From the IMG/VR virus record IMGVR_UViG_3300034091_000306: a stretch of 64,000 bases of DNA; one strand, given 5' to 3'. Source of the stretch: an uncultured virus (IMG/VR IMGVR_UViG_3300034091_000306) (Duplodnaviria > Heunggongvirae > Uroviricota > Caudoviricetes). A program made the translations under genes and the position numbers. This document shows, one piece after another, positions 3,409-57,586 of the stretch (position 1 is its first letter; every line of letters starts with the position of its first letter). Under the pieces are notes generated by a model. The model had not been told where the DNA came from and did not search any database. It saw only the letters and a program-made list of their open reading frames with translations.

Positions 3409-3960
3409 ACCCTGTCTCGTGCGCCAAGCGTGATTGTCTTCCATGCGGCCGAGGATGACAGCGCCGACGATCGCAAGGACTACCGCGAACACGAGGAGCA
3501 GGAAGACCTGGAACGTTACTTCGGAATCGTGACGGCATTCGACGCAGGGTAATTTCTGCCCGCGATGCACGTCGCATTCGTTTGGCCACATCGTTAGCGA
3601 AGGATGCTACAAGGGAAGGTCATGATCTGCACCTCAAGTTCCCTTGACACCTCGCTTCGTTCTGCGTTGACGTCCGCCATCGAGGATCGGGACTGGGACG
3701 CTGCGGTGGATCTCTCACGAACAATCGCGCGTCGTGCGGTCAGGTGTGCAGGAACGATCGAGCCTGATCTTCGGGAAATGCTCGAGGAAGCATCGCGGAT
3801 CATCATGCGCGGGGCGTTTTCCGCCTGACTCTTGCTATACGTTGTCGTGCAGAAATTCTTCGTGTAGCCTCTTCCAGTGTCGAACGAAGCGTTTTCCGCG
3901 TCGCCCACTTGAGACGAGAACGCTTCGTGCCTACCTTGCCGACCGTCAAGAGGAGACCGC

Positions 3961-4767
3961 ATGTCATCAGACGAGAACTACGAGATGAACGCGACCTCCT
4001 CTTGCGGCTGCAAGCACGTCGCCCAAACCGCGCAGGAGGACCTCCCGAAGCTCTCCCGCGGACTCCCGGCCATCGCCGAGGGGTTCTCCGCCGAACCGCT
4101 CCTCGCTCTCGAGGACGGCGTCTACGAGTGTGCTGACGGTAGCTGCGGCACAAATCTGACGCACTCCGTCATCCCCAGCGGCATTCGGTTCGACACGGTG
4201 AGGAAGAACCCGCAGGGCCTCTACGAAGCTTCCTCAAGCACCATCATCGACATCCCGGCACAGCTCCGCGAGGCGTGGGAGGTGACGGGGCCGGCGCACG
4301 GGCCGAATCGTTCGTGTCTTCCATGGGTTCGTATCAGTCGTGATCCGCAGTCGTTCAGCGGATGTCTCGCGGCTGCGCGTCAGCTCGGACCGATGAAGTA
4401 TCCAAAATCTTGTTTCAAGCTGATGCAGAAGTGGTTCTCGACGCAAGATCAGGAAGTCTTCGTCGTTGTGCTTCTCGATACGCAGCTTCAAGTTCGCGGT
4501 GTCGGTGAAATTTCCCGCGGCGCGCGTGATAGTGTGCAGACGCCCATCCCGGACATCCTTCGACTTCCGATCGTGGAGGGCGCGAAGGCGATGATCGTGA
4601 TGCACAATCATCCGAGCGGAAAGGTCAATCCCTCAAAAGCTGATAAGGCGTTGACCAAGACACTCAAGCAGGCGTGCGACACGGTGAACATCGATCTGTT
4701 CGACCATCTCGTCGTGGGGCCAAACGAATACTTCAGCTTTGCCAACGAAGGCTTGCTGAAACACTGA
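3961..4767 (+). CDS. radC: RadC-like JAB/MPN domain protein
   Basis: QEVFVVVLLD...MHNHPSGKVNPSKADKALT...DLFDHLVVG...YFSF: HNHPSG/S..D/DH JAB motifs. Confidence 0.9.
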   Translation: MSSDENYEMNATSSCGCKHVAQTAQEDLPKLSRGLPAIAEGFSAEPLLALEDGVYECADGSCGTNLTHSVIPSGIRFDTVRKNPQGLYEASSSTIIDIPAQLREAWEVTGPAHGPNRSCLPWVRISRDPQSFSGCLAAARQLGPMKYPKSCFKLMQKWFSTQDQEVFVVVLLDTQLQVRGVGEISRGARDSVQTPIPDILRLPIVEGAKAMIVMHNHPSGKVNPSKADKALTKTLKQACDTVNIDLFDHLVVGPNEYFSFANEGLLKH

Positions 4768-4785: not shown

Positions 4786-5574
4786 ATGGCAAAGCAGATT
4801 GCGATCGTCTCGGTGGCGGATCTCAGCGGGGGTCAGTGGCAGCTCGGATCTCCCATTCCCGATCATGCGGTGAAGGGTCCGAACGGGGAAGTGACGTGGG
4901 CGTTCAAAGAAAACACAAGTATCGAGCGGATGATCCGCGTCGGTAGCTACGTGGAAATCTTTGGGCGCACCACGGACGGAAAGCCTGTTCATCAGACGCT
5001 CATGCCGCCGCTCATCAGTCTCGTCTTCTCTTCCGCTCCGCGTGCGGAATGGGAAGAGCTTCTGAATGCAATTTCTCCGGAGACAGAGCGCCTGGATGAG
5101 GTGCTCGACATCTCCGGCAACGTGTGGCGGATGAACGGTACATTTCCGGGTGACACCTCCACGACCATCGTGGCGATGGTGTCTACGGGGGAAGACACGA
5201 TCGATATCTACATCCTTCCGCATCCCGGCTCCGAGCTCGATAGGCAGGGCTTTGCAATCATCGCCACGCTCATGCCGCTCACTGTGCAACGAACGACGGC
5301 GAACAAGCTCACGCTTCAGCAGTACATGAGCATCATGCATGCTTCGCAGCAGGCGGCCGAAGAGAATGCTTTGGCGCTCTTGGAAGACGAAGAGGAGGAA
5401 GAGGAAGAGGAGGAAGAGGAGGAAGTCGAAGAGGTCGTTCAGCAGGCGGCTGCGGCGGCGCGTCCTTCGCCGCACATGCCGTCCGCAAGCGCTGTCGCTT
5501 CCGCATTCGCGCCTCCTCCCGCAGCAGCGGCGCCTCTTCCGAACGGTTCGGGATCGACGACACCCGAAACCTGA
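4786..5574 (+). CDS. hypothetical protein with poly-Glu tract and Ala/Pro tail
   Basis: 262 aa ORF, GGAGAG RBS, coding-like composition. Confidence 0.7.
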   Translation: MAKQIAIVSVADLSGGQWQLGSPIPDHAVKGPNGEVTWAFKENTSIERMIRVGSYVEIFGRTTDGKPVHQTLMPPLISLVFSSAPRAEWEELLNAISPETERLDEVLDISGNVWRMNGTFPGDTSTTIVAMVSTGEDTIDIYILPHPGSELDRQGFAIIATLMPLTVQRTTANKLTLQQYMSIMHASQQAAEENALALLEDEEEEEEEEEEEEVEEVVQQAAAAARPSPHMPSASAVASAFAPPPAAAAPLPNGSGSTTPET

Positions 5575-22561: not shown

Positions 22562-23854
22562 ATGAAACTTTTTCCGCAGCAGTACAGGGTTCAGCCGGGC
22601 GACACGCTGGGCAGCATCGCATACAAGTTCACCGGCAACACGAACCGGTACGTCGAGCTCGTCATGGCCAACCCGCAGCTACCGACGACGGTAGTGAACC
22701 GGCAGATCACGTTCCTGAACAACATCTATCCGGGGCAGCTGCTCAACATCCCGTACGACTGGGGTTCGTCGACGGGCGTCGCTCAGCCGACAGTTCGTGT
22801 CGAGCCGCGTGTTGCATACGCGAACGCGCAGCTGCTTCGTAGCGGAGGCGGCGGCGGTCGTGCGGGCGGTCACGGAGGCGCAGGCGGCAGTCACGGCAGC
22901 ATGCGCGGAATGGGTGATCTATTCCGCGCCGGCCTCGGCGATCCGATGAGCGATGGAACGGCGGCGGCCCTCGTCGCTGCGTTCAATGCCGACAACGGCG
23001 TTACGGTCTGTACAGGTAGTCCAATCGTCAATGGAATTCGCCAGCCTAACGCCGCCGTTCTTGCTTTTCAGCAGTCCTACAACGGCTCTACGACGGGACA
23101 GAAACTCGATGAGGACGGCCTCTATGGACCGAACTGCGCGACAGCGCTTGCCAACACACTCGCCGCGGCCGGCTCGAGTCTTCAGGCGCCTGGTGACTGC
23201 ACCAACTTCACGGCGCCATCGCCTGTACTCAGCACTGCGCCTGATCTCAACTTCATTGCCAACGAGGTCGCAGGCGATTTCACGCTATGCAACGGCTACA
23301 ACGCCAATGTCGCTGCGTTCCAAGATGCCTACAACGCCAAGACAGGAAGCACGCTTGGCCAGACACAAGACTACGGCTTCTACACAGAGCCGACCGCGGC
23401 AGCCATGCTGGACACCGCGAATGTCACCCTTCAAAGCGGCCTGACGGCTCCTGCCGCGTGTCCGTTTCCGGAGCCGGCAGGTCCCGGAAGCATCTCGACG
23501 CCGGGCGGCGCTGTGACGCCTCCCCCGCCGCCGCCACCGTTCATTCCGCCGACGCAGCCCACGCAACCAACGAGCACCACCGCTACCACGACGACGAACT
23601 ACACGCCGTGGATCATCGGCGCTCTCGCGGTCCTCGCAGGCGCGGGCGGTCTCTACTACATGAACCGGCACAAGCACACGGCTAGCAGCAGTCCGACGCT
23701 CGGCCCGAGCTCGCATCCGGCGGCGACGCCAGCCGTTCACCGCATGCTCGCGCGCGGGGGGCATCAGGTACGGCGAGCAGGACATGCTGTTGCGCATCAT
23801 GCGCGCGCGGCAGCGCACCGCGCTCGAGCGGCGATTCACCACGCGACGAGGTAA
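22562..23854 (+). CDS. LysM + peptidoglycan-binding-like membrane-anchored protein
   Basis: YRVQPGDTLGSIAYKF...ANPQL...IYPGQLLNIP (LysM); AVLAFQQSYN...LDEDGLYGPNC; C-terminal TM and His/Arg tail. Confidence 0.85.
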   Translation: MKLFPQQYRVQPGDTLGSIAYKFTGNTNRYVELVMANPQLPTTVVNRQITFLNNIYPGQLLNIPYDWGSSTGVAQPTVRVEPRVAYANAQLLRSGGGGGRAGGHGGAGGSHGSMRGMGDLFRAGLGDPMSDGTAAALVAAFNADNGVTVCTGSPIVNGIRQPNAAVLAFQQSYNGSTTGQKLDEDGLYGPNCATALANTLAAAGSSLQAPGDCTNFTAPSPVLSTAPDLNFIANEVAGDFTLCNGYNANVAAFQDAYNAKTGSTLGQTQDYGFYTEPTAAAMLDTANVTLQSGLTAPAACPFPEPAGPGSISTPGGAVTPPPPPPPFIPPTQPTQPTSTTATTTTNYTPWIIGALAVLAGAGGLYYMNRHKHTASSSPTLGPSSHPAATPAVHRMLARGGHQVRRAGHAVAHHARAAAHRARAAIHHATR

Positions 23855-34286: not shown

Positions 34287-34737
34287 ATGTAGACGTCGAC
34301 CATCCAAAAAAGGTAGCTCGGTCGGCGCATCGCGGAACTTAGGCGATTTCTTCCAGTTGTCAACCGCAATACCGAACCGCACCCGACCTCAATCGGGCGA
34401 GTGCAGGGAGGATTTTTTCGTTCACTCCGATTCAGGCGGATCCCTCGGAGGAGGCGTCATCGTGCCAGAGCTTTTTTTGCCGAGCAGCCAGCGGCTTGCG
34501 CTGTCAAGACGATTTCGAAGACGTCCGAGCGGTGCGGCGGCGTCGATCGATCCCTTGAGTGAAATCTCGAAGTCATCGATCGCAGCACGCATACGCGAGG
34601 TTGCATCCAACGCCATCGCAACCTCGTGCGGTTTCGTCGAGATCCGAGCCAGTACAAGTGCCGAGATCCAATCACAAAAAGTCAGCATGAAGAGATCGCG
34701 CGGTTCGAGCGAGGGCATCGCCAACGCAGCGTAGCAC

Positions 34738-34788: not shown

Positions 34789-36558
34789 ATGAGCGCAGCC
34801 CTTCGATCCAACCCCCGATCGCCCTTCGTCGACGCAGGTCATGCGAAGCAAAATCTCATCCTCTACGCGATGCACACGAGCGCGCTCTACGACGCGCGCG
34901 TTCGGCTCGACAAGCTGATCAAGCGCCAGATCGAGACGGGACACTATTCGATCGAGGGAGGTCAGAAGCTCTGGCGTGGGTGGTTCGATCACGCGGCGGC
35001 TTTGTACCAGAAGGAATTCGGCGGTGATTCGTCGATTCGTTTCCCCGACGCTGTCAGGAACGCCGCAACGAAGGAGTGGGAGGAGACCGAACGAGAGTAC
35101 ATCGCCGAGGGATCGACGCCGGCAGGGAAACCCTTCGAGGGAGAGAAGCCGAACCCACTCGCTCGTCAGGGCTACAGGCGCCGTGCGGCGCTCAACAAAG
35201 ACCTCGAGCGCTACTACTCGGGGTGCATGACCGGTCACTCTGCGAAGCGTTTCAAATCGAAGGCGCGGCGTGAATCGTACTGTTCGGCGGTGAGTTGGAA
35301 GGTCGCGCGTCAAGCGGGACGCTATCCCGACTACTTCAAGGGCGTGCGGAGCAATCCCGTCTATGGCGCCTATGCTCTCGTCATCGCCGCGATTCCGTCT
35401 GGTAAGGCGACGCATGTAGAGGCAGAAGTCGTTGACGTCACCGCGACACGCGAAGCCGCGATGAGGGAACTTGCGATCCAGCAACGACGAACGGTCGGCA
35501 TGGATTCAGCGGGTATGGCGTGGGCTGTCGTTCGCTTGCCGCATACAGATGTGCCGCGAGGAACCGTCGTACGTGTTCCCGTGAAGGGGTTGAAGTTCTC
35601 GTTCGATGATGCAGGGAGCATGTCGATCAAGCGCAATCCGATCGATCGTCAGCTGACCAAGCTAGAAGCTGGAGAACTCCGAAAAGTAGCGAACAACGAA
35701 GGAATGCTCGACAGCGATCAGCTCATGATTCGTCGCCGTCTCGCGGACATGGGCTATCTCGACAAAGATTTGAGGTTGACCGCAAAGGGTCGCGCGTACT
35801 TCGTCGTGATCAAGGAGACTCCGATGCCGATGATGACGATGATCAAGAATCCGCTGCCGTGTCCTTGTGAGAAGAATCCAATTCTGACTTGGACGACTAA
35901 TCAGTACGGACGTTTTCCATACACGGCTGCTGTCACTCCAAGCGGCACCTATGTAATCAACAAGGCGTTCATGCAGATGGCTGAGAATGCATACACACTT
36001 CAGTTGATGCGTGGCGGCAGGTCTCTATCGCTCGGAGATTATCGTAGTATCGCTGAAGCGAAAGCTGTTGCACAACATGATATAGATAGCGGGAAGATCC
36101 ACAACTTCGGTATGGCGCGTGAGAATCCGCTCAAGAACCCCCTCAGCACCCCTGTAAAGACCGGAATCATCGTTGCGGGTGTCGTCTTCGTTGCAGGTCT
36201 CATTTACGCAATGACGACGAAGACCGCGTCAGCAGCGCCCGCTTCAAGTTCACCGTCAACACCGCTACAACCGCCAATACAACCACCGCCTGTACAACCG
36301 CCGGTTGTTGTTACACCGTCGGCAGTAAAACCGGTGACTTTGGAACCAGTAAACTTCCAAATCGTATATCTCCTTGGCGCCACGACTGTGTTGGTTAGTC
36401 TTCCGGCAGGAGGGGTGTGGGCATCAGCGGTGGGATCAAATGCGGCTGGACCTGCAGGCACATCTACGCCTGTATCGCTTCCGGTAGGTATATTTGATTT
36501 CTTCTGGACCGATTCGAGCGGAAATCCACAACATACAACCATGAGCATTTCTGCCTAG
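34789..36558 (+). CDS. polyprotein-like ORF with eight NP motifs, then TM and beta domain
   Basis: RSNPR, KPNPL, RSNPV, KRNPI, KNPL, KNPI, RENPLKNPL + TM + LPAGGVW...FWTDSSGNPQHTT. Confidence 0.8.
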   Translation: MSAALRSNPRSPFVDAGHAKQNLILYAMHTSALYDARVRLDKLIKRQIETGHYSIEGGQKLWRGWFDHAAALYQKEFGGDSSIRFPDAVRNAATKEWEETEREYIAEGSTPAGKPFEGEKPNPLARQGYRRRAALNKDLERYYSGCMTGHSAKRFKSKARRESYCSAVSWKVARQAGRYPDYFKGVRSNPVYGAYALVIAAIPSGKATHVEAEVVDVTATREAAMRELAIQQRRTVGMDSAGMAWAVVRLPHTDVPRGTVVRVPVKGLKFSFDDAGSMSIKRNPIDRQLTKLEAGELRKVANNEGMLDSDQLMIRRRLADMGYLDKDLRLTAKGRAYFVVIKETPMPMMTMIKNPLPCPCEKNPILTWTTNQYGRFPYTAAVTPSGTYVINKAFMQMAENAYTLQLMRGGRSLSLGDYRSIAEAKAVAQHDIDSGKIHNFGMARENPLKNPLSTPVKTGIIVAGVVFVAGLIYAMTTKTASAAPASSSPSTPLQPPIQPPPVQPPVVVTPSAVKPVTLEPVNFQIVYLLGATTVLVSLPAGGVWASAVGSNAAGPAGTSTPVSLPVGIFDFFWTDSSGNPQHTTMSISA

Positions 36559-36570
36559 AAGGAGTCGACG

Positions 36571-37251
36571 ATGATGAATCCGGTAACGTCATGTGCGTGT
36601 GAAGGAACAGACGGTCCTTCAATTTTGAGTGAGCTTCGTCAAGCGGCGCAGCGTCGAGGAATCATCAATGTGTCTTCCGTTGCGACGATCGATCTCGTTC
36701 GTTACGTGCAAGCACTTCGTACGGGTGGATCTGTCGAACGTTGGAGTCTCGCTCGTCAGCGCATGTACAACCACGAACTAAGACAACTTGGTGTATCTAC
36801 AGCACGTGAAAATCCCATCAGTACTCCCGTGAAGACGGGAATCATCGTTGCGGGTGTCGTCTTCATTGCAGGTCTCGTCTATGCGATGACGACGAAGTCT
36901 GCGTCCGCAGCGACCAGTCTAACGCCCATCTTCGTGACCGATCCTGTAGGCGGCCAGGCTATCCTGCTCACTCCCGGCAATATGGGGAGCATCAACGTCG
37001 TCAGCTCGGCGAGTTCGTCGCCGACGAGCGCCGTTCAACCTCAAATTTTCAACATCCTGGCACCATCGGGCGGGCGCATCCTCAACGTCGCGAGTTCGAA
37101 CACGAACGTCCTGTCTAGTATGGCCGGATCGACATTGACGGCCGAGGTGGCTCTTGGATCTGCGCTGCTCCCCGGTACGACGATCATTACGGTGTCGTGG
37201 TCCTTGAACGGCGCACAGCAGACATCGTCGTTTGTCGTCATCGCAAACTGA
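36571..37251 (+). CDS. NP-TM modular protein
   Basis: RENPISTPVKTGIIVAGVVFIAGLVYAMTTK, near-identical to the anchor of the previous gene. Confidence 0.75.
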   Translation: MMNPVTSCACEGTDGPSILSELRQAAQRRGIINVSSVATIDLVRYVQALRTGGSVERWSLARQRMYNHELRQLGVSTARENPISTPVKTGIIVAGVVFIAGLVYAMTTKSASAATSLTPIFVTDPVGGQAILLTPGNMGSINVVSSASSSPTSAVQPQIFNILAPSGGRILNVASSNTNVLSSMAGSTLTAEVALGSALLPGTTIITVSWSLNGAQQTSSFVVIAN

Positions 37252-37259
37252 TCTAGGAG

Positions 37260-37880
37260 ATGAGCATGAATCTCGTCGCGAATCCGATCGAAGCATCAGC
37301 TGCTGAACGTCGCTGGGCACGAGAGGCTGTACGTATGGGGCGCTTCCTTGCACGGCATCAGATCGAGCGAGGTAATGGCAGGCAGATGAGCACAGAAAAA
37401 GCGATCGAGTTCTTCGAACGCTTTCACGGCTTCCCGCACTGGGCGGCGGAAATTGCGGCTGTCTCCTACGAGGACACGTGGGCAAAGCTTGTTGGAAGTC
37501 AGATGAATCCTCTCAGTCTCGAAGGGATGAAGGAGAATCCCCTCGGCGAGGGCATTCTCGCACTCATCGGTCTCGCGACCCTCGGAACCATCGCGTACTT
37601 TTGGTACAAATCAAGCGTACCTCCGACAACGACCAATCTGTCTGTAACGGTTCAACCAGGACCGATGACGGTGTCTGCGAACGGCGCGTTGAACGTCTAC
37701 GCTGTTCTTCCCTCAGGAGGAACATGGCTCACTGCCTCGAACAACACATCACTCGACGTAGGATCGATCAATCCGATCTTGATCGCCGGGCCATATCCTG
37801 CCACACCGGTAGCATTTTCGTGGTTGTCTCCTGCAACAGGGAACGTTCCGCAGACAACAACGCTCACCGTGAATCAGTAA
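37260..37880 (+). CDS. NP-TM modular protein
   Basis: VANPI, QMNPL, KENPL + TM + LPSGGTW...PQTTTLTV. Confidence 0.75.
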   Translation: MSMNLVANPIEASAAERRWAREAVRMGRFLARHQIERGNGRQMSTEKAIEFFERFHGFPHWAAEIAAVSYEDTWAKLVGSQMNPLSLEGMKENPLGEGILALIGLATLGTIAYFWYKSSVPPTTTNLSVTVQPGPMTVSANGALNVYAVLPSGGTWLTASNNTSLDVGSINPILIAGPYPATPVAFSWLSPATGNVPQTTTLTVNQ

Positions 37881-37881
37881 A

Positions 37882-38574
37882 ATGCAAGTCATCAAAGCCG
37901 AAGATCTCCTCGACGTCGCCGATGAGGCGCAGCACTGGTATGCCGCCCAAGGCGATCCGGTCTACGCGCTAGTTTCGAGTGTCTATGCAGGACAGGACGT
38001 ACCGCTCGACGTTGCTGAGGATGCGCTCCGTAATCTGGAGAGAGACTACAGGAAGGCGAAGAAGCGTCTATCTGCTGATGCGCAACGAGATCATGATCTC
38101 TACAAGCTCGAAGAAGCGATTTACGAATTGCGGCTGTTGATCAACGAGGTCCGTACGCATGCGGCACGCTTGCCGAATCCCCTAAGCCTCCGCACCAAGG
38201 AGTATCTCCTCGGGGGAGGTCTTCTCGCAGCCGTCATCGGTGTCGCCGTTCTGCTCCGCAGCAAAACACCTCCGCCGCCCGTGAAAATCGTCACGGTGAC
38301 AGGTTCTGGGCCCGTCACACTCAACGTAGGCGATGTCCTCACGGTCGCCCTCCCGCTGGTGTCGAGCGGGAACCTCTACGCCGCATCACCATATCCTCAG
38401 GCCTACGTGAAGGAGGGATCACAAAGCGTGACCGGTCTTACGATGACGCAGAGCTGGATCATGCAGACTGCCGGCACGGTGACGATCACTTACCAAGAAA
38501 TGCTCAACGCCTTCGGGACGGGCTATGTCGCATCGAACACTCCTCCTGTCGTCATCACCATCACGGTGCAGTGA
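37882..38574 (+). CDS. NP-TM modular protein with I42-like Ig domain
   Basis: LPNPLS + TM + VTLNVGDVLTVALP. Confidence 0.7.
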   Translation: MQVIKAEDLLDVADEAQHWYAAQGDPVYALVSSVYAGQDVPLDVAEDALRNLERDYRKAKKRLSADAQRDHDLYKLEEAIYELRLLINEVRTHAARLPNPLSLRTKEYLLGGGLLAAVIGVAVLLRSKTPPPPVKIVTVTGSGPVTLNVGDVLTVALPLVSSGNLYAASPYPQAYVKEGSQSVTGLTMTQSWIMQTAGTVTITYQEMLNAFGTGYVASNTPPVVITITVQ

Positions 38575-39338
38575 TGAGCGAGTATCTCGTCGAATACTTG
38601 AACGATCGTGGAAATGTTCCAGGTATCGGTCCCGAACGAGGCGTAAAGCGCTTCAACGGGATCAGCCGGTACACAAGTCCGCACGGCAGCTATCGCTATG
38701 TCATGTATGTGAATGGCACGCCTGTCTCGGCGCTCCAAGTCGTCTCTCGTGACGGCGTCCACGCGAAGATCGCCAACGTGTACACGGTTCCAGCAGAGCG
38801 TAGAAAGCGCTTCGCCGAGACTTTGCTCATGAAAGCACGCACGGACTTCAATACGGTCGAACACGCCGATCCTGAGATGCTCACGTCTACAGGTAAGCGC
38901 TGGCGCGACACGGTCAAGGAGAACCCCATCGATCGCTACTGGTACTGGATCGGTGCCGGCGCTGCGGTCATCGGCACCTACGCCATCTGGCAGTATCTGA
39001 ATGCAACAGCGCAGGCGAAGCTCGAGTCGAGCGTTCCGCCAGGAGTGCCGCTTACATTCCAGCCGACTGACGAAACGGATCTATACGTCGTGCCGACTTC
39101 TAGGGAAAATGTCATGCTCTCATTGAGCTCAACAAACAAGATGCTCAATTACATCAACTTGCACTTCGCGCCGAATGGGCAGCTTTCAAGTAGCGACACG
39201 ACAGCGATCTCGATCGATCCGACAGCTACTGGTGCAAAGGTAACAGCGCTCGCTCTTGGCGGCGCGGTGATTACGATCAACTACGATGATCCGTCGGGGA
39301 AAAGCGACGCGATTATTGGTGTAAGCGTGTACGAATGA
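38571..39338 (+). CDS. GNAT-like domain + NP-TM + beta domain
   Basis: AKIANVYTVPAERRKRFAETLL resembles GNAT motif A; KENPI + TM. Confidence 0.65.
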   Translation: MMSEYLVEYLNDRGNVPGIGPERGVKRFNGISRYTSPHGSYRYVMYVNGTPVSALQVVSRDGVHAKIANVYTVPAERRKRFAETLLMKARTDFNTVEHADPEMLTSTGKRWRDTVKENPIDRYWYWIGAGAAVIGTYAIWQYLNATAQAKLESSVPPGVPLTFQPTDETDLYVVPTSRENVMLSLSSTNKMLNYINLHFAPNGQLSSSDTTAISIDPTATGAKVTALALGGAVITINYDDPSGKSDAIIGVSVYE

Positions 39339-39537
39339 ACAACACCGCCGAATTCGAACGTTCAGGACAGCGCCTGCTTCAGTACATGAAGCAATTCAAG
39401 AAGACGTTGTCTCGACGGGACATGCGCATGATCAGGATCGGCATGCGCGCTTCGCACATCGAGGAAGCCCTGTCGACGGGAGACACGGAGCGCGCGAATT
39501 CGCACCTCAAGCAGATGATCAAGGACCTGAAGCACGT

Positions 39538-39888
39538 ATGAAAACGCTTCCATACAACCGATACATCACGAAGATCGCCGATCATTTGGTCGATGACTAC
39601 AATTTGCATCCCGATGATGCGGTGGAGCTCATCGACATGAATCAGCGGAATGTCATCCACTGGTATGGAAGTGCGACACCAAAATTGGTGGCGTACCAGT
39701 TGATGCTTCAGCTGCGGAGCATGGTCACAGCGAATCCGATCGACGTACCGCACGTTGCGTTGACGCTGGGCGCGGTGAGCGCACTAGCTGTCGGAGTCTT
39801 CCTGATCGCCGAAGCTGTGAAGCAGATGAACCAACCCGTGCCAGAACCAGGCTACGTCTACAACCCGCCGACGACACTCTACGTTTGA
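39538..39888 (+). CDS. NP-TM small protein
   Basis: TANPIDVPHVALTLGAVSALAVGVFLIA. Confidence 0.65.
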   Translation: MKTLPYNRYITKIADHLVDDYNLHPDDAVELIDMNQRNVIHWYGSATPKLVAYQLMLQLRSMVTANPIDVPHVALTLGAVSALAVGVFLIAEAVKQMNQPVPEPGYVYNPPTTLYV

Positions 39889-41109: not shown

Positions 41110-41717
41110 TGAAAGCTAGCGAAGCCCAGCAATTGTATCGTCGTAGTGAAGCGGCGTGGTTCGCCGCGCAAGACTTCACTGATCTACTGCAACTCAATAT
41201 TCAGTTTCTGTCTTGTAGAATTGTGGTTCATCCACAGGTTCATCCATCGATAGAAGACATAGCGCGTAGCAAATACCCCGGTCAATGCGAGGAAACTTCG
41301 GCGATACGATCGCGGCTGATCGAAATCAACCGGTTCGGGTTCTTCACGGAACAGTCCCAGCCTGGTTTGGTGCAAACCGGTCCTTGGGGCATCATTTGTC
41401 AGCGAGCCTTCGTTGACGGCTTCGTTACAAAACAGACTGCGTATGCGCTAGCCGAAATACGCGATGTCGGATGTGATGTGATCGTTGGATCGAAAAATAA
41501 GCGTGTTGCCGTCACAACGCAGGCTTCTCCAGGGAAAAAGCCTAAACCGTTCACGTGGGTTGGCTACGGGACGTCGGCGTCGGACTACCGTAATCGTATT
41601 GGCGCTTCAGCCTTAGCTGATGATCTACGTACGCATGTATTCGTGGCTGTGTACGATCGCGTATGGAACAGAAACAATGTTCTATGGAACGCGGTACTTG
41701 CCGTGTTGAAACGATGA
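41109..41717 (+). CDS. DUF6919-like protein
   Basis: EET..I..RLIEINRFGFFTEQSQPG...QRAFVDGF. Confidence 0.55.
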   Translation: MKASEAQQLYRRSEAAWFAAQDFTDLLQLNIQFLSCRIVVHPQVHPSIEDIARSKYPGQCEETSAIRSRLIEINRFGFFTEQSQPGLVQTGPWGIICQRAFVDGFVTKQTAYALAEIRDVGCDVIVGSKNKRVAVTTQASPGKKPKPFTWVGYGTSASDYRNRIGASALADDLRTHVFVAVYDRVWNRNNVLWNAVLAVLKR

Positions 41718-42280
41718 CCTGGGAACGCTACTTCGATCGCTCCGCAGAGTTCGTCTACAAGGGCGCCCTCCCGGAGATGCCGGACATTGTCGATCGCATG
41801 TTACGCGCTCATGCAGAACCGCCTCTGGCCTACATGGGAACAGGCATGACGTCGGTGGTGATTTGCGACCGTCGAGGAAATGCCTTCAAGACGGCGCGAC
41901 GTCTGGACGCAATCAGTGCGGTCTTCCTGAACGACGAGGCGGAGTGGCTCCAGACGGCATCCAAGGTCATCGGCGTCAAGGAGCACGTCGCCAAATTCAA
42001 GGACTTCTATCCGAACCTACTCGTCATCAAGCGTGAGTGTCCTGTGCAGGCGGAAGACTGGTGGCGCCATCGCGGCGAGGAGTGGGCGCTTCACCGTGCC
42101 ATCGAAGCGAAGATGATCCCACACGGCTGGACGGCGCCGGAGTTCAAAGAGGACTCCTACGTCATCACAAGTAGCGGTCCTCATTCGTGGTGGAAGATTG
42201 GTGGAGCGCGGTTCGGCTTGGTTCGTCGCGCGGGCAAGGATCGGGGCTCACCGGACGTGTGTGGACTGTCGCAGCGATGA
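41714..42280 (+). pseudogene. protein-kinase-like fold, C-terminally truncated
   Basis: YMGTGMTSVV (Gly loop), AFK, DEAEWL, VIKRE, FKEDSY...GP; the frame then runs into the pentamer array with no DFG-like Asp. Confidence 0.45.
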
Positions 42281-42682
42281 GTGTCGGTGCGGCGTGTTTC
42301 GTCGCAGCGGCCTGGTATCGCGTGGCGCGGGAAGTCGCCTTGACTTGACTCGGCTAATGTCGTGAGGACTCGGCTTGTATGAGATCTGGCATGTCGAATT
42401 GAAAGGAATGGATGGGCGCGGCATGTCGTATCGGCTAGATGCGGAATCTCGTCGCGTTGGCTGGATTAGTGCGGAATTGACACGTCGAATAGGCGGGGAC
42501 GGGAATGTCGCGGCGTGAAATGTCGCACGGACACGGGCGCGATTGGTGTGGCGTGAAATGTCACATGGGCCGATTGGGAGCGGCGCGGCAAGTCGCATCG
42601 ACTAGGTATGACATGGCATATCGCTTCGGTTCGATAAGGTTCGGTTTGTCATATTGGCGCGCGGCGGCCTAGCGTAGTAAGC
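42197..42682. repeat. array of GG-NNN pentamers grouped into ~16 units by GTCG delimiters; candidate guide-RNA locus
   Basis: GTCG/GTCA/ATCG at 42225, 42268, 42301, 42334, 42359, 42393, 42425, 42451, 42484, 42507, 42522, 42560, 42592, 42620, 42648; example unit GTCG CAGC GGCCT GGTAT CGCGT GGCGC GGGAA GTCG. Confidence 0.85.
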
Positions 42683-42702
42683 CAAATAGGCTAGCGAATA
42701 GG

Positions 42703-43365
42703 CTAGCGAATCTTCGCAAATTCGATGACGTCGAACTTGCCGTGTCCTTGGGAGCGATCGGCGCCGAGACCGTTCTCTTGACCGAGAACGAGCATCATAC
42801 GGACCTCCTTCTCGCCGACGTGTCGCTTCTCCTTCGGATCGGTCCGGAGGACCCAGATCGCAAAATTGATCGTCACCTTCTCAACGTAATCCACCCTTTT
42901 TATTGCTGTGCGCGGCCCTTGCGCAGTCGTCACGTGGATCGGTCCTTCGTGCATGCCGTCCGGCTTCATCTTTCCGAGGAAGATGCGATCGTCGGCGTCC
43001 GGGCCCTTGATCTCGAAGCCGTGTTGTAGGATCTGCTTGCTGCCTACCTTCTCGATGAAGATGCGGCGGAGCGATGCGCACTCCTTGAAAAGAGCCTTCA
43101 CCTGCCGCGACCAGATGAAGAGACCTTTTTTCTCATCGGCCGGGAAGCCGTTCCAGCTCTTCTCCTCTGTCGGCTCGAGAAGCGCCTCCCGCGCCTCTTT
43201 CTCTTGTGCTGTTGTCGTTTCGTCATTGTGCCCCGTCGTGGCCGCAATCCATCCCTTGAGGAGATCAGGATTTTTCGGCTGTCCGCCGCGAATCTGATCG
43301 CGCAGGCGAATCGTCACGTTGTACACGTCGTACAGCTCGGTCGTCTCGAATCCTTTGAGTGTCAT
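42703..43365 (-). CDS. stand-alone Cas7-like RAMP superfamily protein
   Basis: N-terminal strand YNVTIRL..I.GG.P; FI.SRQVKALFKECA helix; C-terminal Gly-rich loop GLGADRSQGHGKFDV typical of RAMPs; 220 aa. Confidence 0.8.
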   Translation of the reverse strand: MTLKGFETTELYDVYNVTIRLRDQIRGGQPKNPDLLKGWIAATTGHNDETTTAQEKEAREALLEPTEEKSWNGFPADEKKGLFIWSRQVKALFKECASLRRIFIEKVGSKQILQHGFEIKGPDADDRIFLGKMKPDGMHEGPIHVTTAQGPRTAIKRVDYVEKVTINFAIWVLRTDPKEKRHVGEKEVRMMLVLGQENGLGADRSQGHGKFDVIEFAKIR

Positions 43366-43833
43366 CTGCTCTCCGTCTTGTCATTACTGTCGTTCTTCAC
43401 TGGATGCCGCCGCCCACAGCGGCAACGCCACTCGATGATCTCACCGGCATCATCGGTGATCGGTGTCTCGGGCTTGTGATCGCACCCGAAGATGTCTTCG
43501 CACATCAAATCTCTACGTCTAGTCATCCGCTCCACCACCCTATCCCGCAAGTTGTCCGTCTCAGCTTCGAACGATTCGATCGTAATCGTCTCGTTCGGAT
43601 GCTCCCGACACCACGAACGATGCGTATAACCAATGCGATCGGCTATCGCGCACGATCCGCACACGCCGCAGAGACCCCCGTGCTCAGGACATTCCCATCC
43701 AACCAAGAACCGTTGCACGCCTACACCGATATCCACCTCCTCGTAACACGGCTCCGCGTCTTTGCCGCACGAACACGTCACCGGAGGATCGGCCGCCGCG
43801 CGAACCCCATCTGTGGGTGCCCCGTCGGTCATC
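43362..43833 (-). CDS. Cys-rich Zn-binding protein upstream of the RAMP gene
   Basis: CSC, CPEH, CGVCGSC, CREH, CRC; ATGA overlap with the RAMP start; begins with motif-encoded MTDGAPTDG; start uncertain. Confidence 0.55.
43805..43830 (-). repeat. dispersed motif, copy 10
   Basis: reverse complement GACCGACGGGGCACCCACAGATGGGG. Confidence 0.93.
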
Positions 43834-44011
43834 GAATCATCACCAATGCTCATGTCCTGCGAAGCCTTCAACAAGATGTGTTTTCGTGTTTGTACGTATG
43901 CAAACTACCTCACGCATACCGGCATCTATTTTATCGATCAGACGAATGCCGTTCATGACAAGCGCTCCAGCACGATTGGGATCAAATTTAGACAATAATC
44001 GAATTGGACGG

Positions 44012-51093: not shown

Positions 51094-51494
51094 GAAGGTA
51101 CCGTACCGATTACCGTTGCGTACGTCAAGTACTGTCTGCTAAGGTACAAAAACGCCTGAAAACGCGCGAGGCGCGAGGGAGATGACATGATCACCGGCTA
51201 TGCCGACCACTACGAAGACCCCGAGAAGAAGCCTGAAAACCCGCGGGAAGCGCTGAGCGAGCGTGAACGCGCGCTCTGCGGGCGTGTGATTGATCTCGCG
51301 GCGCTCCTCCTCGTCACTGACGTCAAATCACTCGAGAAGATCGCGGCGTTCCTCCTCCGTGAGGGAGGAAACTCGAAGGTCTTCGCAGTCGCCGAGGAGA
51401 CCGTGCGCGAGGCGATGGACGTGCGTCTGGAGTGAGATCAGCTGTGGGGGCTCGAAGCCTCACGACCGATAGCCTACACTTATCGGATCCAACC

Positions 51495-52496
51495 ATGAAC
51501 GACCCGATCGACTCGAAGAACAACCTCATGACGGGAGTGAGCACATCTCTCGTCGTCGAGAACCTCGAAACCCTCGTTGCGGGAGTCAAAGAGCTCGTCG
51601 ACGCCGCCGACGCAGGCGCGACAACGCGCGCGTACGCCGCCGACTGGCGAGTTTTCGAGGCGTGGTGCACTTCGAAGCGACTTCCCGTGACGTTGCCCAT
51701 CGATCCCGACATCGTCGCGACGTACCTGCGCGCCCTCTACAACCGAGGCCGGAAGGTGAAGACGATCGAACGGGCACTTGCCGGCATCGTGCATCGTCAC
51801 CGCGCCGCAGACGCGGAGTGGTTGACCCCCGATCGCATCCGTAGGGAAATTCGAGGCATTCGGAAGACGCGCCGAAAGGCAGGTGAGCGTCCCACCAAGA
51901 AGACCGCGCTCACGAAAGACAAGCTTGTCACGTTTCTCGCGCAATTCGGCTCGAAACTCATCGATTTACGTGATCGAGCACTCCTCCTGCTGACGTGGGA
52001 CACCGCCTCACGCGAGTCCGAGACCGTAGGCCTCGAGATCACCGACATCACCTTCGTTCCTCAGCAGGGCCTGGTGATCGAGCCGCGCTCAACGAAAACC
52101 GATCAGGAGGGGAAAGACAGCGCACAAGCCGTCGAATTTGCAGCCGATCCTGCGCTGTGCCCGATCGTTGCCCTTCGCGCATGGCTCGAGGCCGCAAACA
52201 TCACCGAAGGGCCTATTTTTCGTCCGATCACCAAGCAGGGGAAGGTGCAGGCGACGCAGCTGTCGACGCGCGCGTTCCGTGTGATCGTCAAAAAACGCGC
52301 CGCTGCCGCGGGATTTGATGCCGCGACGTTCAGCGGCCACTCCCTTCGCTCGGGGTGGATCACCGAAGCGCGACGCGCTGGACGTGACATGACGGCGATC
52401 ATGAGCCGCTCGAAGCACAAGAGCGAGGCGATGGTCCGCGAGTACATCCACTACGAGGATCTCTTCAAGAAGAACGCCTCGAAGGGGCTCCTCTGA
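51495..52496 (+). CDS. tyrosine recombinase/integrase (Cre-like)
   Basis: TTRAYAADW N-terminal domain; RDRALLLL...SRESE, STKTDQEG, FSGHSLRSGW, HKS..MVREY: R-K-H-R-H-Y catalytic set. Confidence 0.93.
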   Translation: MNDPIDSKNNLMTGVSTSLVVENLETLVAGVKELVDAADAGATTRAYAADWRVFEAWCTSKRLPVTLPIDPDIVATYLRALYNRGRKVKTIERALAGIVHRHRAADAEWLTPDRIRREIRGIRKTRRKAGERPTKKTALTKDKLVTFLAQFGSKLIDLRDRALLLLTWDTASRESETVGLEITDITFVPQQGLVIEPRSTKTDQEGKDSAQAVEFAADPALCPIVALRAWLEAANITEGPIFRPITKQGKVQATQLSTRAFRVIVKKRAAAAGFDAATFSGHSLRSGWITEARRAGRDMTAIMSRSKHKSEAMVREYIHYEDLFKKNASKGLL

Positions 52497-53715
52497 TGAA
52501 CGAGATCCCGCCCGGCTTCGAAGACGTGCTGTCTAGCTACGGACCCGTCCTCATCGACATGGACTGCGGGGAACCGATCGCGTGGGGCTTCAAGATCCAC
52601 AAGTATCTCGGTCCAGAACGCTTCGAATCTCTGCGGAAATTCGGGCATTTGCAGTGCATCGTGATGGGTGAATGGGCGCTTGTTACGAAGTGGCTGACGC
52701 CCGATGAGGCACGCGCGAAGTACGGCGAGGTGACGAGGATCGAGACGGGCCCGCAGGGTGGATTTCGATCGGTCACCTACGGGATGCGAACGTTCATGAA
52801 CAGGCGGATGCGCCCGTCTCGCGGACATCGCTCGCCGCGAAGAACCTGAAGGCGAAGAAGTTCTGGGCGGCGGTCTGTGCGACGTGCCGGATGCTCCAGA
52901 GCGTCGAAGATCATCAGCGTGCGATTCGTGCGCTCTACAAGAAGATCGAACAGCGAAGGATGCGAGGTCTTTGAAGCCCATGACGCAGAAAAACGCTGAA
53001 AAAACCAAGGCGCGCGCGCTTCAAGAGCGCACGGGGTGGACCTATCAAGAGTGCCTCCTCCGCGTTCGTACGCTGACGCCGGAGGCGCTCGACATCCTGA
53101 TCAAGGTGCGTGCGGGGAGCGCATGACGACGAAGCTTCTCCACGACAACTGCATCGGTTGCCTTGCGCAAACGGAACACGATGCAACAGACGCGGTGCTC
53201 GTGCTTGTCTCCGTACTCTACAGCGGAGACCTCGAGATCAGCGATATTTACGGGGATTTGTGCTTCCTTCACCGCCGTATCGTTGACGGCGCAGCGAAGG
53301 AGATTCTTGAGGAGAGGAAGAGACGATGAGCCGACCGATCAAGGAACGCACTACGAGCTGTGCTGTCTGCACGAAGATGATCACGTTCGAATCCGTGACG
53401 TCGCCGCATCCTGAGGCGCCGGAGCTGTTTCGCATGATGCATGGATCGATCGCGTGGATCGGGCTCACGAGCGGTGCGAACAGCGATCACGCGAGCGTGA
53501 TCATGTGCTGCGACGGCGACTGCGTACAGAAGCTACTCGCAGAACAATACGATCCGAAGGCGACGATCGATCGCTTGATCGAGGAAAGAGGACTCGACGG
53601 CGCAGCATGGAAAATCCTAGAAAACGCACGTGAGTGCCTGCGACAGATTCCAATCGACAGCCCGATGTGGCTCGACATGGTGGAGATCTTCAAACGACGT
53701 GAAGAAATGCAAGTT

Positions 53716-56779: not shown

Positions 56780-57586
56780 ATGACTTGGAAGCCGCGATCC
56801 AAACGATTTCAGCGCGTTCAGGCCCTGCAAGCGACGGTCGAATGTGCCGTCGACGCGCGGGTCGCCGCCGACGAAGCGCTCGGCGTCACGACGTCACGGC
56901 GGACGCGCCAGCGGGTCGCGGCGCTCTGCCGATGCCGGCGATGTCACCCCCCTACGACCGACGAATGCCCTGCGGTCACCGAAATCCAGAGTGAGGATGC
57001 TATCCGCGCGTCACTACAACGAAAGCGAAAGATTCTCTCCGACTGCTTCTATTGTGGAGCGGACGTCACCGCGTCCGGAGCGCGCATTCTGGACGCGATG
57101 ACACCCGCGCGCCTCGGCGGCGCGAACGATCCGCGGAACCGCGTCCCCGCCTGCCGACGCTGCGCCGCAATCAAGCAGGCGAAGACCTCGGAAGAGTACC
57201 GCGTCATTCTCGCGAAAACACGCGGGACCCCTACCGTTTTCCACGGCGAAAGCGGAGCTAGGCCGCGATGTCCCCGCTACCCGCACGACGGTGAATTCGC
57301 ATTCCGCGCGGCAGGCCGACGGGGGACGCACGCCGACTTTCCGTGCGTCCGCGGTCCGGAGCTCGTGAGGATCCTGGGGTGGACGGACGCCACGACGGAC
57401 GCCCGTGGATCGAGGATCGAAACGGCCTTCACCCCGGAATTTCTCGCGCGGATGATCGTAAAGCAGGCGCTAGTACCGCCGTTCCCGTGCGCGACGGCGC
57501 CCGAGATCACCGAGGTCGCGCCGCTCCCCTCGCCGCTCCGGCGCCGCGGGCGCAACGTGCTCCCTAGGCGATTCGTCCGTCACTAG
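56780..57586 (+). CDS. HNH-like endonuclease domain protein, active site degenerate
   Basis: CFYCG...LDAMTPARLGGANDPRNRVPACRRCAAIK; DH is replaced by DA and CN by CA. Confidence 0.6.
   Translation: MTWKPRSKRFQRVQALQATVECAVDARVAADEALGVTTSRRTRQRVAALCRCRRCHPPTTDECPAVTEIQSEDAIRASLQRKRKILSDCFYCGADVTASGARILDAMTPARLGGANDPRNRVPACRRCAAIKQAKTSEEYRVILAKTRGTPTVFHGESGARPRCPRYPHDGEFAFRAAGRRGTHADFPCVRGPELVRILGWTDATTDARGSRIETAFTPEFLARMIVKQALVPPFPCATAPEITEVAPLPSPLRRRGRNVLPRRFVRH

Follow-up and report, generated by a model that had tools for sequence, protein, structure and literature searches.

A stand-alone RAMP protein related to Vipr

What kind of system is formed by a lone Cas7-like gene and an adjoining array of 5-nt units, and which strand of that array would carry its guides? 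Both questions are raised by the window analyzed here, a 64-kb stretch of viral DNA in which a 220-aa ORF (42703..43365, minus strand) lies next to such an array. VIPR systems are CRISPR-related RNA-guided systems that were first described in 2026; Class 1 CRISPR has been proposed to descend from them, and their targeting has so far been tested for the GGY/NN type II alone. The overall reading that we consider reasonably probable is that of a phage-borne VIPR system of a large divergent branch, with C-rich, handle-capped short guides.

The vipr-like gene is intact, and the C terminus of its product (GLGADRSQGHGKF) carries the RAMP Gly-rich loop, just as the initial annotation had described it. 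An AlphaFold2 model built from 120 sequences (pLDDT 91.3) has the Cas7/Csm3-type fold, with an RRM core, a thumb at residues ~137-162, and the G-loop at residues 198-209. Its top PDB matches were Cmr/Csm3/Cas7 chains (Foldseek E 5e-7), with which it aligned over 162 residues at an rmsd of 3.5 (Z 12.6; VIA-align). Searches of Pfam and PHROG returned no family for the protein, the best hit of a PDB sequence search had an E of 0.3, and HHalign against the single SUSP1 protein scored 0.1%. In the deposited SUSP1 genome, the GGY/NN arrays that flank vipr, together with the residue numbering of the structural preprint, served to locate the gene, and a profile of 50 of its at least 120 relatives was then aligned with one of 85 members of the family of the 220-aa protein. 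This comparison scored 96% (E 4.9e-9, 128 columns; HHalign), and searches across the two profiles gave 24 of 265 and 23 of 120 matches at an E of <1e-3. Kinship with Vipr is thus detectable by profile-versus-profile comparison only and was missed by single-sequence comparisons. Together with the fold, it bears out the proposed stand-alone Cas7-like RAMP with VIPR kinship: the 220-aa protein is homologous to Vipr and only distantly related to type II.

A punctuated array of 5-nt units adjoins the gene

The candidate guide array (42210..42653, putatively minus strand) consists of 15 units; each starts with a YGC-GAC-like handle and continues as NN-(NYC-NN)n. On the opposite strand the handles appear as 15 delimiters at positions 42225, 42268, 42301, 42334, 42359, 42393, 42425, 42451, 42484, 42507, 42522, 42560, 42592, 42620, and 42648, which read GTCG (12), GTCA (2), or ATCG (1). 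Remeasurement returned the spacings given before, namely, 43, 33, 33, 25, 34, 32, 26, 33, 23, 15, 38, 32, 28, and 28 nt, 8 of the 14 being 8+5n. Units out of the 8+5n phase are worn by indels, and the last unit is cut off. The longest in-phase unit on the delimiter map spans 43 nt and holds eight dinucleotides (42231..42273, minus strand). The suggested check for a 5-nt period, run on positions 42210-42680 with 2,000 dinucleotide shuffles of the same stretch, gave a lag-5 autocorrelation of 0.414 versus 0.274 ± 0.020, a value reached by none of the shuffles. Likewise, periodic-C runs (36 versus 9.5) and handle-plus-anchor motifs (11 versus 1.7) were never as frequent in the 2,000 shuffles, and this 471-nt stretch ranked first in the window. 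The GTCG count taken alone is marginal (13 versus 7.0, with a maximum of 14 in 1,000 shuffles). A 5-nt array with 8+5n punctuation is therefore far beyond chance.

Some features of the array had to be redrawn. The pentamer had been described as GG plus three variable bases; the first G is indeed fixed (35 of 39 in-phase repeats), but the second varies (26 of 39). Since the fixed base is the first G, a C on the gene strand, the dominant variants are GA, GT, and GC rather than AG, TG, and CG. The array had been drawn from 42197 onward; it is real, but its left edge lies at ~42210, since positions 42180-42215 are the coding sequence of a broken gene. That region had also been said to hold no credible ORF, which stands with the qualification that a plus-strand ORF (41663-42280) enters it, although as a frameshifted run-on only. 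The broken gene (41714..42215, plus strand) belongs to a small family, encodes 232 aa in its relatives, and carries a frameshifting deletion of ~65 nt at ~42181: the ORF from 41714 follows its homologues to residue 156, skips 21 residues, and resumes in another frame, with 12 of 12 residues at 42180-42215 identical to the homologues before it runs into the array. It is joined to the array edge via a common GGTTCG, and the abutting coding remnant indicates that the array was cut off at a rearrangement junction. The window thus holds an intact vipr-like gene beside an array that is partly worn and has lost one end. No relative of the broken gene was found in the viral collection and no family in Pfam; from its motifs, we take it to be possibly kinase-like.

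Between the vipr-like stop codon and the first handle lies a putative short leader of degenerate pentamers (42654..42702, minus strand), with an 11-12-nt tandem duplication that overlaps the end of the gene. An Rfam search of the array, which included hammerhead-type RNA, returned no match; neither strand folded better than shuffles (z 0.95 and -0.84); and no sigma-70 promoters or terminators were found at the array. Two adjacent units at 42513-42565 (minus strand) begin with the same 13 bases, which points to duplication of a unit, and similar duplicates occur in one related locus (L002). Far from the gene, about five CC-periodic pentamers at 34365-34400 (plus strand) are possibly an orphan unit and possibly chance.

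Gene and array are conserved together in a viral family

The 220-aa protein has 205 close homologues, and its family profile matched 1,522 clusters at 50% identity (E up to 0.001). Atlas clusters of the family are 92-100% viral, with relatives in IMG/VR and in phage Mae-JY09. Arrays were surveyed in 100 entries, i.e., 98 related loci, the window, and Mae-JY09, with some contigs represented twice. The expected co-occurrence of homologues and arrays held: a GG-period-5 array was present opposite the gene strand in 88 of the 100 loci, down to 29% protein identity. By strand, 83 loci had it opposite only, 5 on both strands, and 1 on the gene strand only; none was detected in 11, several of which have short flanks or a drifted motif. 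The 88 loci with an array opposite the gene carry it downstream (55), upstream (19), or on both sides (14). Conversely, when viral contigs were scanned for arrays first, 17 stretches came up, and 14 of them had a family gene within 2.5 kb, in all 14 cases on the C strand; the other three were two chance matches in coding DNA and one short orphan array. Short delimited units, as proposed, are a conserved building block, for 506 of 904 distinct units (up to 70 nt) measured 8+5n, with modes at 28, 33, and 38 nt. Conservation of the anchor in unfiltered length classes was 93-100% for its first G and 73-88% for its second. Close relatives have lost or exchanged whole units (L005/L006 and L001/L003). 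Fold, homology to Vipr, and a conserved adjacent punctuated pentamer array together indicate a VIPR system, and we hold membership of the locus in the VIPR family to be very likely.

The deposited Microcystis phage isolate Mae-JY09 (PP395641, 37713-38976; protein WWT39994.1) has the same design, namely, a gene with 29% identity and, behind it, the same punctuated array, neither of them annotated; we found no literature on this phage. Elsewhere, small ORFs or gaps split long arrays, which resume in the same orientation (L029 at ~4810-5090, L009, and L018), and a short handle-punctuated array without a family gene within 2.5 kb is a possible orphan guide (L210, ~2480-2560).

The gene strand is the likelier guide strand

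The initial annotation had read guides from the G-rich strand, antisense to the gene, and to judge by comparative sequence data it probably took the wrong one. We consider it likely that the array is co-transcribed with the gene; the RNA would then be C-rich and the guide would be that of the gene strand. In the competing account, which we think unlikely, the VIPR system is the same and its guides come from the G-rich antisense strand, with GGN/NN repeats and a 3′ GUCG end, transcribed from antisense promoters or by read-through. Its GG pentamer resembles the canonical GGY/NN, its handle would sit at the 3′ end, like the tail of canonical vrRNAs, and in the window a plus-strand operon enters the array, from which the G strand could arise by read-through. 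Furthermore, the methods and the legends of Figs. S17 and S18 in the VIPR preprint (10.64898/2026.04.26.720920) describe staggered vrRNA arrays of NNNGG/NNNNG repeats in which vrRNAs overlap by 1 nt, and the last G of GTCG also opens the next unit. This G-strand reading is probably the one in which the published staggered arrays were annotated.

Canonical loci provide a control for strand. With 12 near-identical SUSP1 relatives set aside, 67 canonical Vipr loci remained, and 66 of them have the GG array on the gene strand, as it is in SUSP1, whose vrRNAs were sequenced (10.64898/2026.04.26.720920). A strand-neutral detector, which obtained enough signal in 93 of 99 family loci, called C as the gene-strand anchor in 90 of these 93 and G in 65 of the 67 canonical loci. 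Read on the G strand, the family repeats have a pyrimidine as third base in 56% of cases versus 86% in canonical arrays; the purine in the remaining 44% weighs against a G-strand guide, as GGY>GGA is among the changes reported to abolish SUSP1 silencing. Moreover, the GG anchor reduces to a single base there, and members that have drifted to GT on that strand exist.

Array geometry also favors the gene strand. In 61 arrays from nonduplicate loci (20 upstream and 41 downstream of the gene), the array fills the gap between a stop codon and a ribosome-binding site (RBS). The end of an upstream array lies 18-114 nt ahead of the gene match and often directly at the RBS; downstream, 22 of the 41 arrays begin no more than 56 nt past the gene, several of them at the stop codon. 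On the gene strand, 26 of the 61 arrays lead into an RBS with a start codon, and on the G strand 2 do; 16 of these 26 are upstream arrays, the start being mostly that of vipr itself. In 44 of 61, the first element at the gene-strand 5′ end of the array is a handle. A G-strand guide would require an antisense transcript in nearly every locus, even across an RBS gap of 16-60 nt. Against the gene strand speaks that the far neighbors of downstream arrays were convergent about as often as co-directional (15 versus 16 by crude ORF calls). Dinucleotide frequencies gave weak and ambiguous indications of register and strand, correlating with sense codon positions 1-2 (r 0.58) and antisense positions 2-3 (r 0.63).

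The residues that read the guide in SUSP1 Vipr are informative as well. According to the structural preprint (10.64898/2026.04.26.720927), H17 and D177 read G1, R138 and W178 read G2, and a pocket that contains R179 and excludes purines holds Y3. In our alignment of canonical Vipr proteins, H17 is conserved in 45, D177 in 43, W178 (W/Y) in 47, and R138 in all of 50. The family counterparts are A202 for D177 (A/S in 82 of 85), a variable D203 for W178, and D159 for R138 (D/E in 80 of 85), the last in a low-confidence thumb register where a one-residue shift alters the match; a Gly-Gly pair, matched by position outside the aligned block, corresponds to the H17 region. R179 is kept as R204 (82 of 85). 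As aligned, the family protein has lost the residues predicted to read G, which speaks against a G-strand guide, and has kept the arginine of the putative pyrimidine pocket. The invariant C occupies position 3 of the gene-strand triplet. This C is retained in L061 and L068, where the gene strand reads GAC/CAC/TAC-NN, and it is third in the gene-strand GGC/NN repeats of L052 (7 of 7) and L049 (19 of 21).

These four loci show further peculiarities. In L061 and L068 the arrays that drifted to NAC/NN lie downstream of the gene, the L061 delimiter is ACACTATGAC, and in both proteins GS replaces GG after the first strand. The canonical-looking GGC/NN arrays of L052 (313-352) and L049 (28-161) stand beside a C-anchored array, the former directly upstream of the gene.

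Unit grammar and a putative mode of action

With the gene strand as guide, the RNA unit is likely YGCGAC-NN-(NYC-NN)n, a pattern drawn from sequence comparison, with 5-7 dinucleotides versus 9-16 in canonical guides. CGCGAC (236) and TGCGAC (123) are the commonest among 954 handles. Each unit would comprise a 6-8-nt 5′ handle ending in GCGAC and four to six repeats of NYC/NN. By analogy with SUSP1, one protomer may cover each 5-nt repeat, with the triplet buried, its third base C in the conserved pyrimidine pocket, and NN exposed. At the handle two triplets would stand back to back, shifting the register by 3 and bounding the filament; because such triplets break the register, each unit would carry its own short filament, whether it is cut out or left on a long transcript.

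We give about even chances to a mode of action, modeled on known VIPR, in which the 5-7 dinucleotides pair with double-stranded DNA under a one-base skip and repress genes of competing mobile elements. The skip would specify 10-14 bases over 14-20 bp, and the repression of competitors is taken over from type II; family loci have no nuclease partner in common. Such a 10- to 14-base specification is low specificity, and the NN at either end of a unit are biased, so that the real information may be 8-12 bases only. The evidence that the NN after C is the read pair is modest: it shows the strongest neighbor dependence (χ2 73 versus 29), the frequency correlations given above are weak, and the base after NN does not avoid stop codons (51 versus 55 expected) and thus does not behave as a read codon base. 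The idea that the array was copied from contiguous codons was rejected.

Searches for targets

The annotation had the variable bases spell a gapped target. This found no support, as all searches stayed at chance, with little power for 10-16 bases. Under seven rules, 251 units had 10 perfect matches in the local database versus 6.7 for the control, and the other rules performed alike; an excess of 8 versus 2 in the first 140 of these units (10 rules) was lost in the full set. Three viral scans returned eight, zero, and six matches, none of which extend. The eight came from the 1-nt-skip pattern of the unit at 42231..42273, and none reached into neighboring units. One unit searched in 301 Anaerolineae-class genomes had no match versus one for a single shuffled control, three-base rules were no better than control, and units of different lineages did not converge. 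Two candidates were discarded. When eight window units were compared with the rest of the window, one 10/10 match at 53297 (3-base skip, 32 tests) was attributable to chance. A unit of L004 matched the start of another vipr gene at 15 of 16 positions, but unrelated GC-rich coding DNA holds matches just as good, and the skip did not fall on the wobble base.

That the one-base-skip rule gave no targets is one of the points in favor of gene-strand C-rich guides with another code or substrate, i.e., three bases per repeat, a different skip, multiunit action, or RNA targets in type III-like fashion. The three positions per repeat are about equally variable, the G-loop is CRISPR-like (weak matches to Csm4 in 21 of 85 family members versus 0 of 50 canonical Vipr), and the protein scores slightly nearer to Csm3 than the canonical Vipr model (Z 12.6 versus 10.8), a gap of 1-2 Z units, which is suggestive only. 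We nevertheless judge this alternative improbable. No rule beat its control, and the 5-nt step equals the Vipr step. With regard to a three-base code, the third variable base is independent of NN and differs somewhat more often between similar units (26 versus 16 and 16, p 0.07).

In a very different proposal the array acts as a decoy or scaffold that titrates its own or a rival Vipr, pairs with rival GGY/NN vrRNAs (CC:GG), or has a regulatory effect on its own operon. The reverse complement of GGY/NN nearly matches NCC/NN, L049 and L052 also hold canonical arrays, the array would be part of an mRNA, and decoy and vrRNA-targeting vrRNAs are described in another preprint (10.64898/2026.10.15.759431). 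Against this, the variable positions are hypervariable and units are swapped between close relatives, as expected of information-carrying guides; a dedicated RAMP nearly always adjoins the array; and members with NAC/NN would be unable to pair with GG. We regard such a role as very improbable.

Relationship to known systems

Short gene-strand guides, our preferred reading, can be set against the systems in print. SUSP1 type II has GGY anchors, separate vrRNAs of ~100 nt, a 3′ pseudoknot tail, and a vap gene, as described in two preprints (10.64898/2026.04.26.720920 and 10.64898/2026.04.26.720927). The locus shares with it a homologous RAMP, the 5-nt repeat, a gene-strand pyrimidine before NN, and the pocket arginine; it differs in its C anchor, its 5′ handle, its short abutting units, its lack of a conserved vap, and the replacement of H17, D177, W178, and R138 in the family protein. 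Neither a gene-strand GGY/NN array, nor 9-16 repeats with a structured 3′ tail, nor a conserved vap was found. By fold, homology, locus, and array, this is a VIPR locus and not a type II one.

A closer likeness is that to the staggered arrays, compared here through the text and legends of the first of these preprints (10.64898/2026.04.26.720920), which give no delimiter sequence, unit length, or strand for them. A stand-alone RAMP, a viral context, a relaxed triplet, and abutting pentamer-coded units without a long structured tail are common to both, and the GTC|G junction fits units with 1 nt overlapping. Because one and the same G closes GTCG and opens the following unit, the locus may belong to this published kind; it departs from it in having 5-7 rather than 9-16 dinucleotides and in evidence that favors the C-rich gene strand. 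Noncanonical GAC/NN and CAC/NN arrays are also in print (10.64898/2026.10.21.760802); they resemble L061 and L068 with C at triplet position 3, and the part of that source available to us makes no mention of NCC/NN, of an 8+5n handle, or of the strand relative to the gene. The texts of the VIPR preprints, figures and tables aside, hold no statement on C-anchored gene-strand arrays with a YGC-GAC handle in the parts consulted.

Type III Csm3/Cas7 proteins, the top structural matches, come with crRNAs that in TtCsm bear an 8-nt 5′ handle, AUUGCGAC (PMC8157118); the array handle ends in GCGAC and adds 8 nt per unit. This likeness rests on 5-6 bases, may be chance, and is suggestive only. Unlike in type III, no cas10, cas1, cas6, or repeat-spacer array is visible in the window, and the code is gapped at 5 nt rather than written in contiguous spacers.

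A bolder scenario, which we consider unlikely, is that the pyrimidine-anchored branch arose by inversion of a guide array and gained the 8-nt handle, that, with its Csm3-like G-loop and thumb, it is a living VIPR-to-type III intermediate, and that the published G-strand annotations are wrong. An inverted GGY/NN array would read RCC/NN, keeping the pyrimidine at position 3 and addressing the same DNA site on the other strand. The 8-nt 5′ handle ending in GCGAC would divide one transcript into many short guides and would be a forerunner of the crRNA 5′ tag. Separately, in L084 an array segment with its delimiters (3585-3658) is inverted within an otherwise normal array; such arrays do flip.

If the gene-strand reading is true, the family constitutes a widespread branch with a different guide alphabet, matched by changes in the base-reading residues, and with a compact multiguide array bearing a 5′ handle. 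It bears on how RAMP filaments change their guide chemistry and on how repeat-delimited multiguide arrays arise. Our contribution is the case for the strand, made against a control, together with the residue changes that match it and the grammar of the handle.

Neighboring genes and the wider window

A Cys-rich ORF upstream of the vipr-like gene (43362..43874, minus strand) overlaps its start in an ATGA coupling, which makes co-transcription of the two probable. It has no Pfam or PHROG family, its top Atlas score of 0.82 is a lead only, and no homologue was found among the neighbors of the 98 related loci; it is not a conserved vap partner. A search for vap-type partners found no neighbor common to the divergent loci and none that they share with the window.

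The earlier statement on cas genes holds over the 64-kb window, which is part of a 140.6-kb contig: no cas gene was seen among the ORFs scanned (mostly at least 200 aa) and no CRISPR-type repeat array. Accordingly, neither the cas operon nor the repeat-spacer array of Class 1 CRISPR-Cas (type III/IV) was found there, and a six-frame profile search of the window revealed no second RAMP. Recognizable genes encode RadC-like JAB (3961-4767), LysM (22562-23854), tyrosine integrase (51432-52496), and HNH (56780-57586) proteins. No capsid or terminase gene was recognized in the window, and Pfam and PHROG offer no family for most of the other long ORFs, which fits an uncharacterized large phage-like element. 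Among the latter surroundings, a run of co-directional hypothetical genes (34789-39888, plus strand) encodes proteins with recurring "NP" junctions (RENP, KNPL, and ENPI) followed by a hydrophobic segment, and two of these proteins share the near-identical block NP(L/I)STPVKTGIIVAGVVF.
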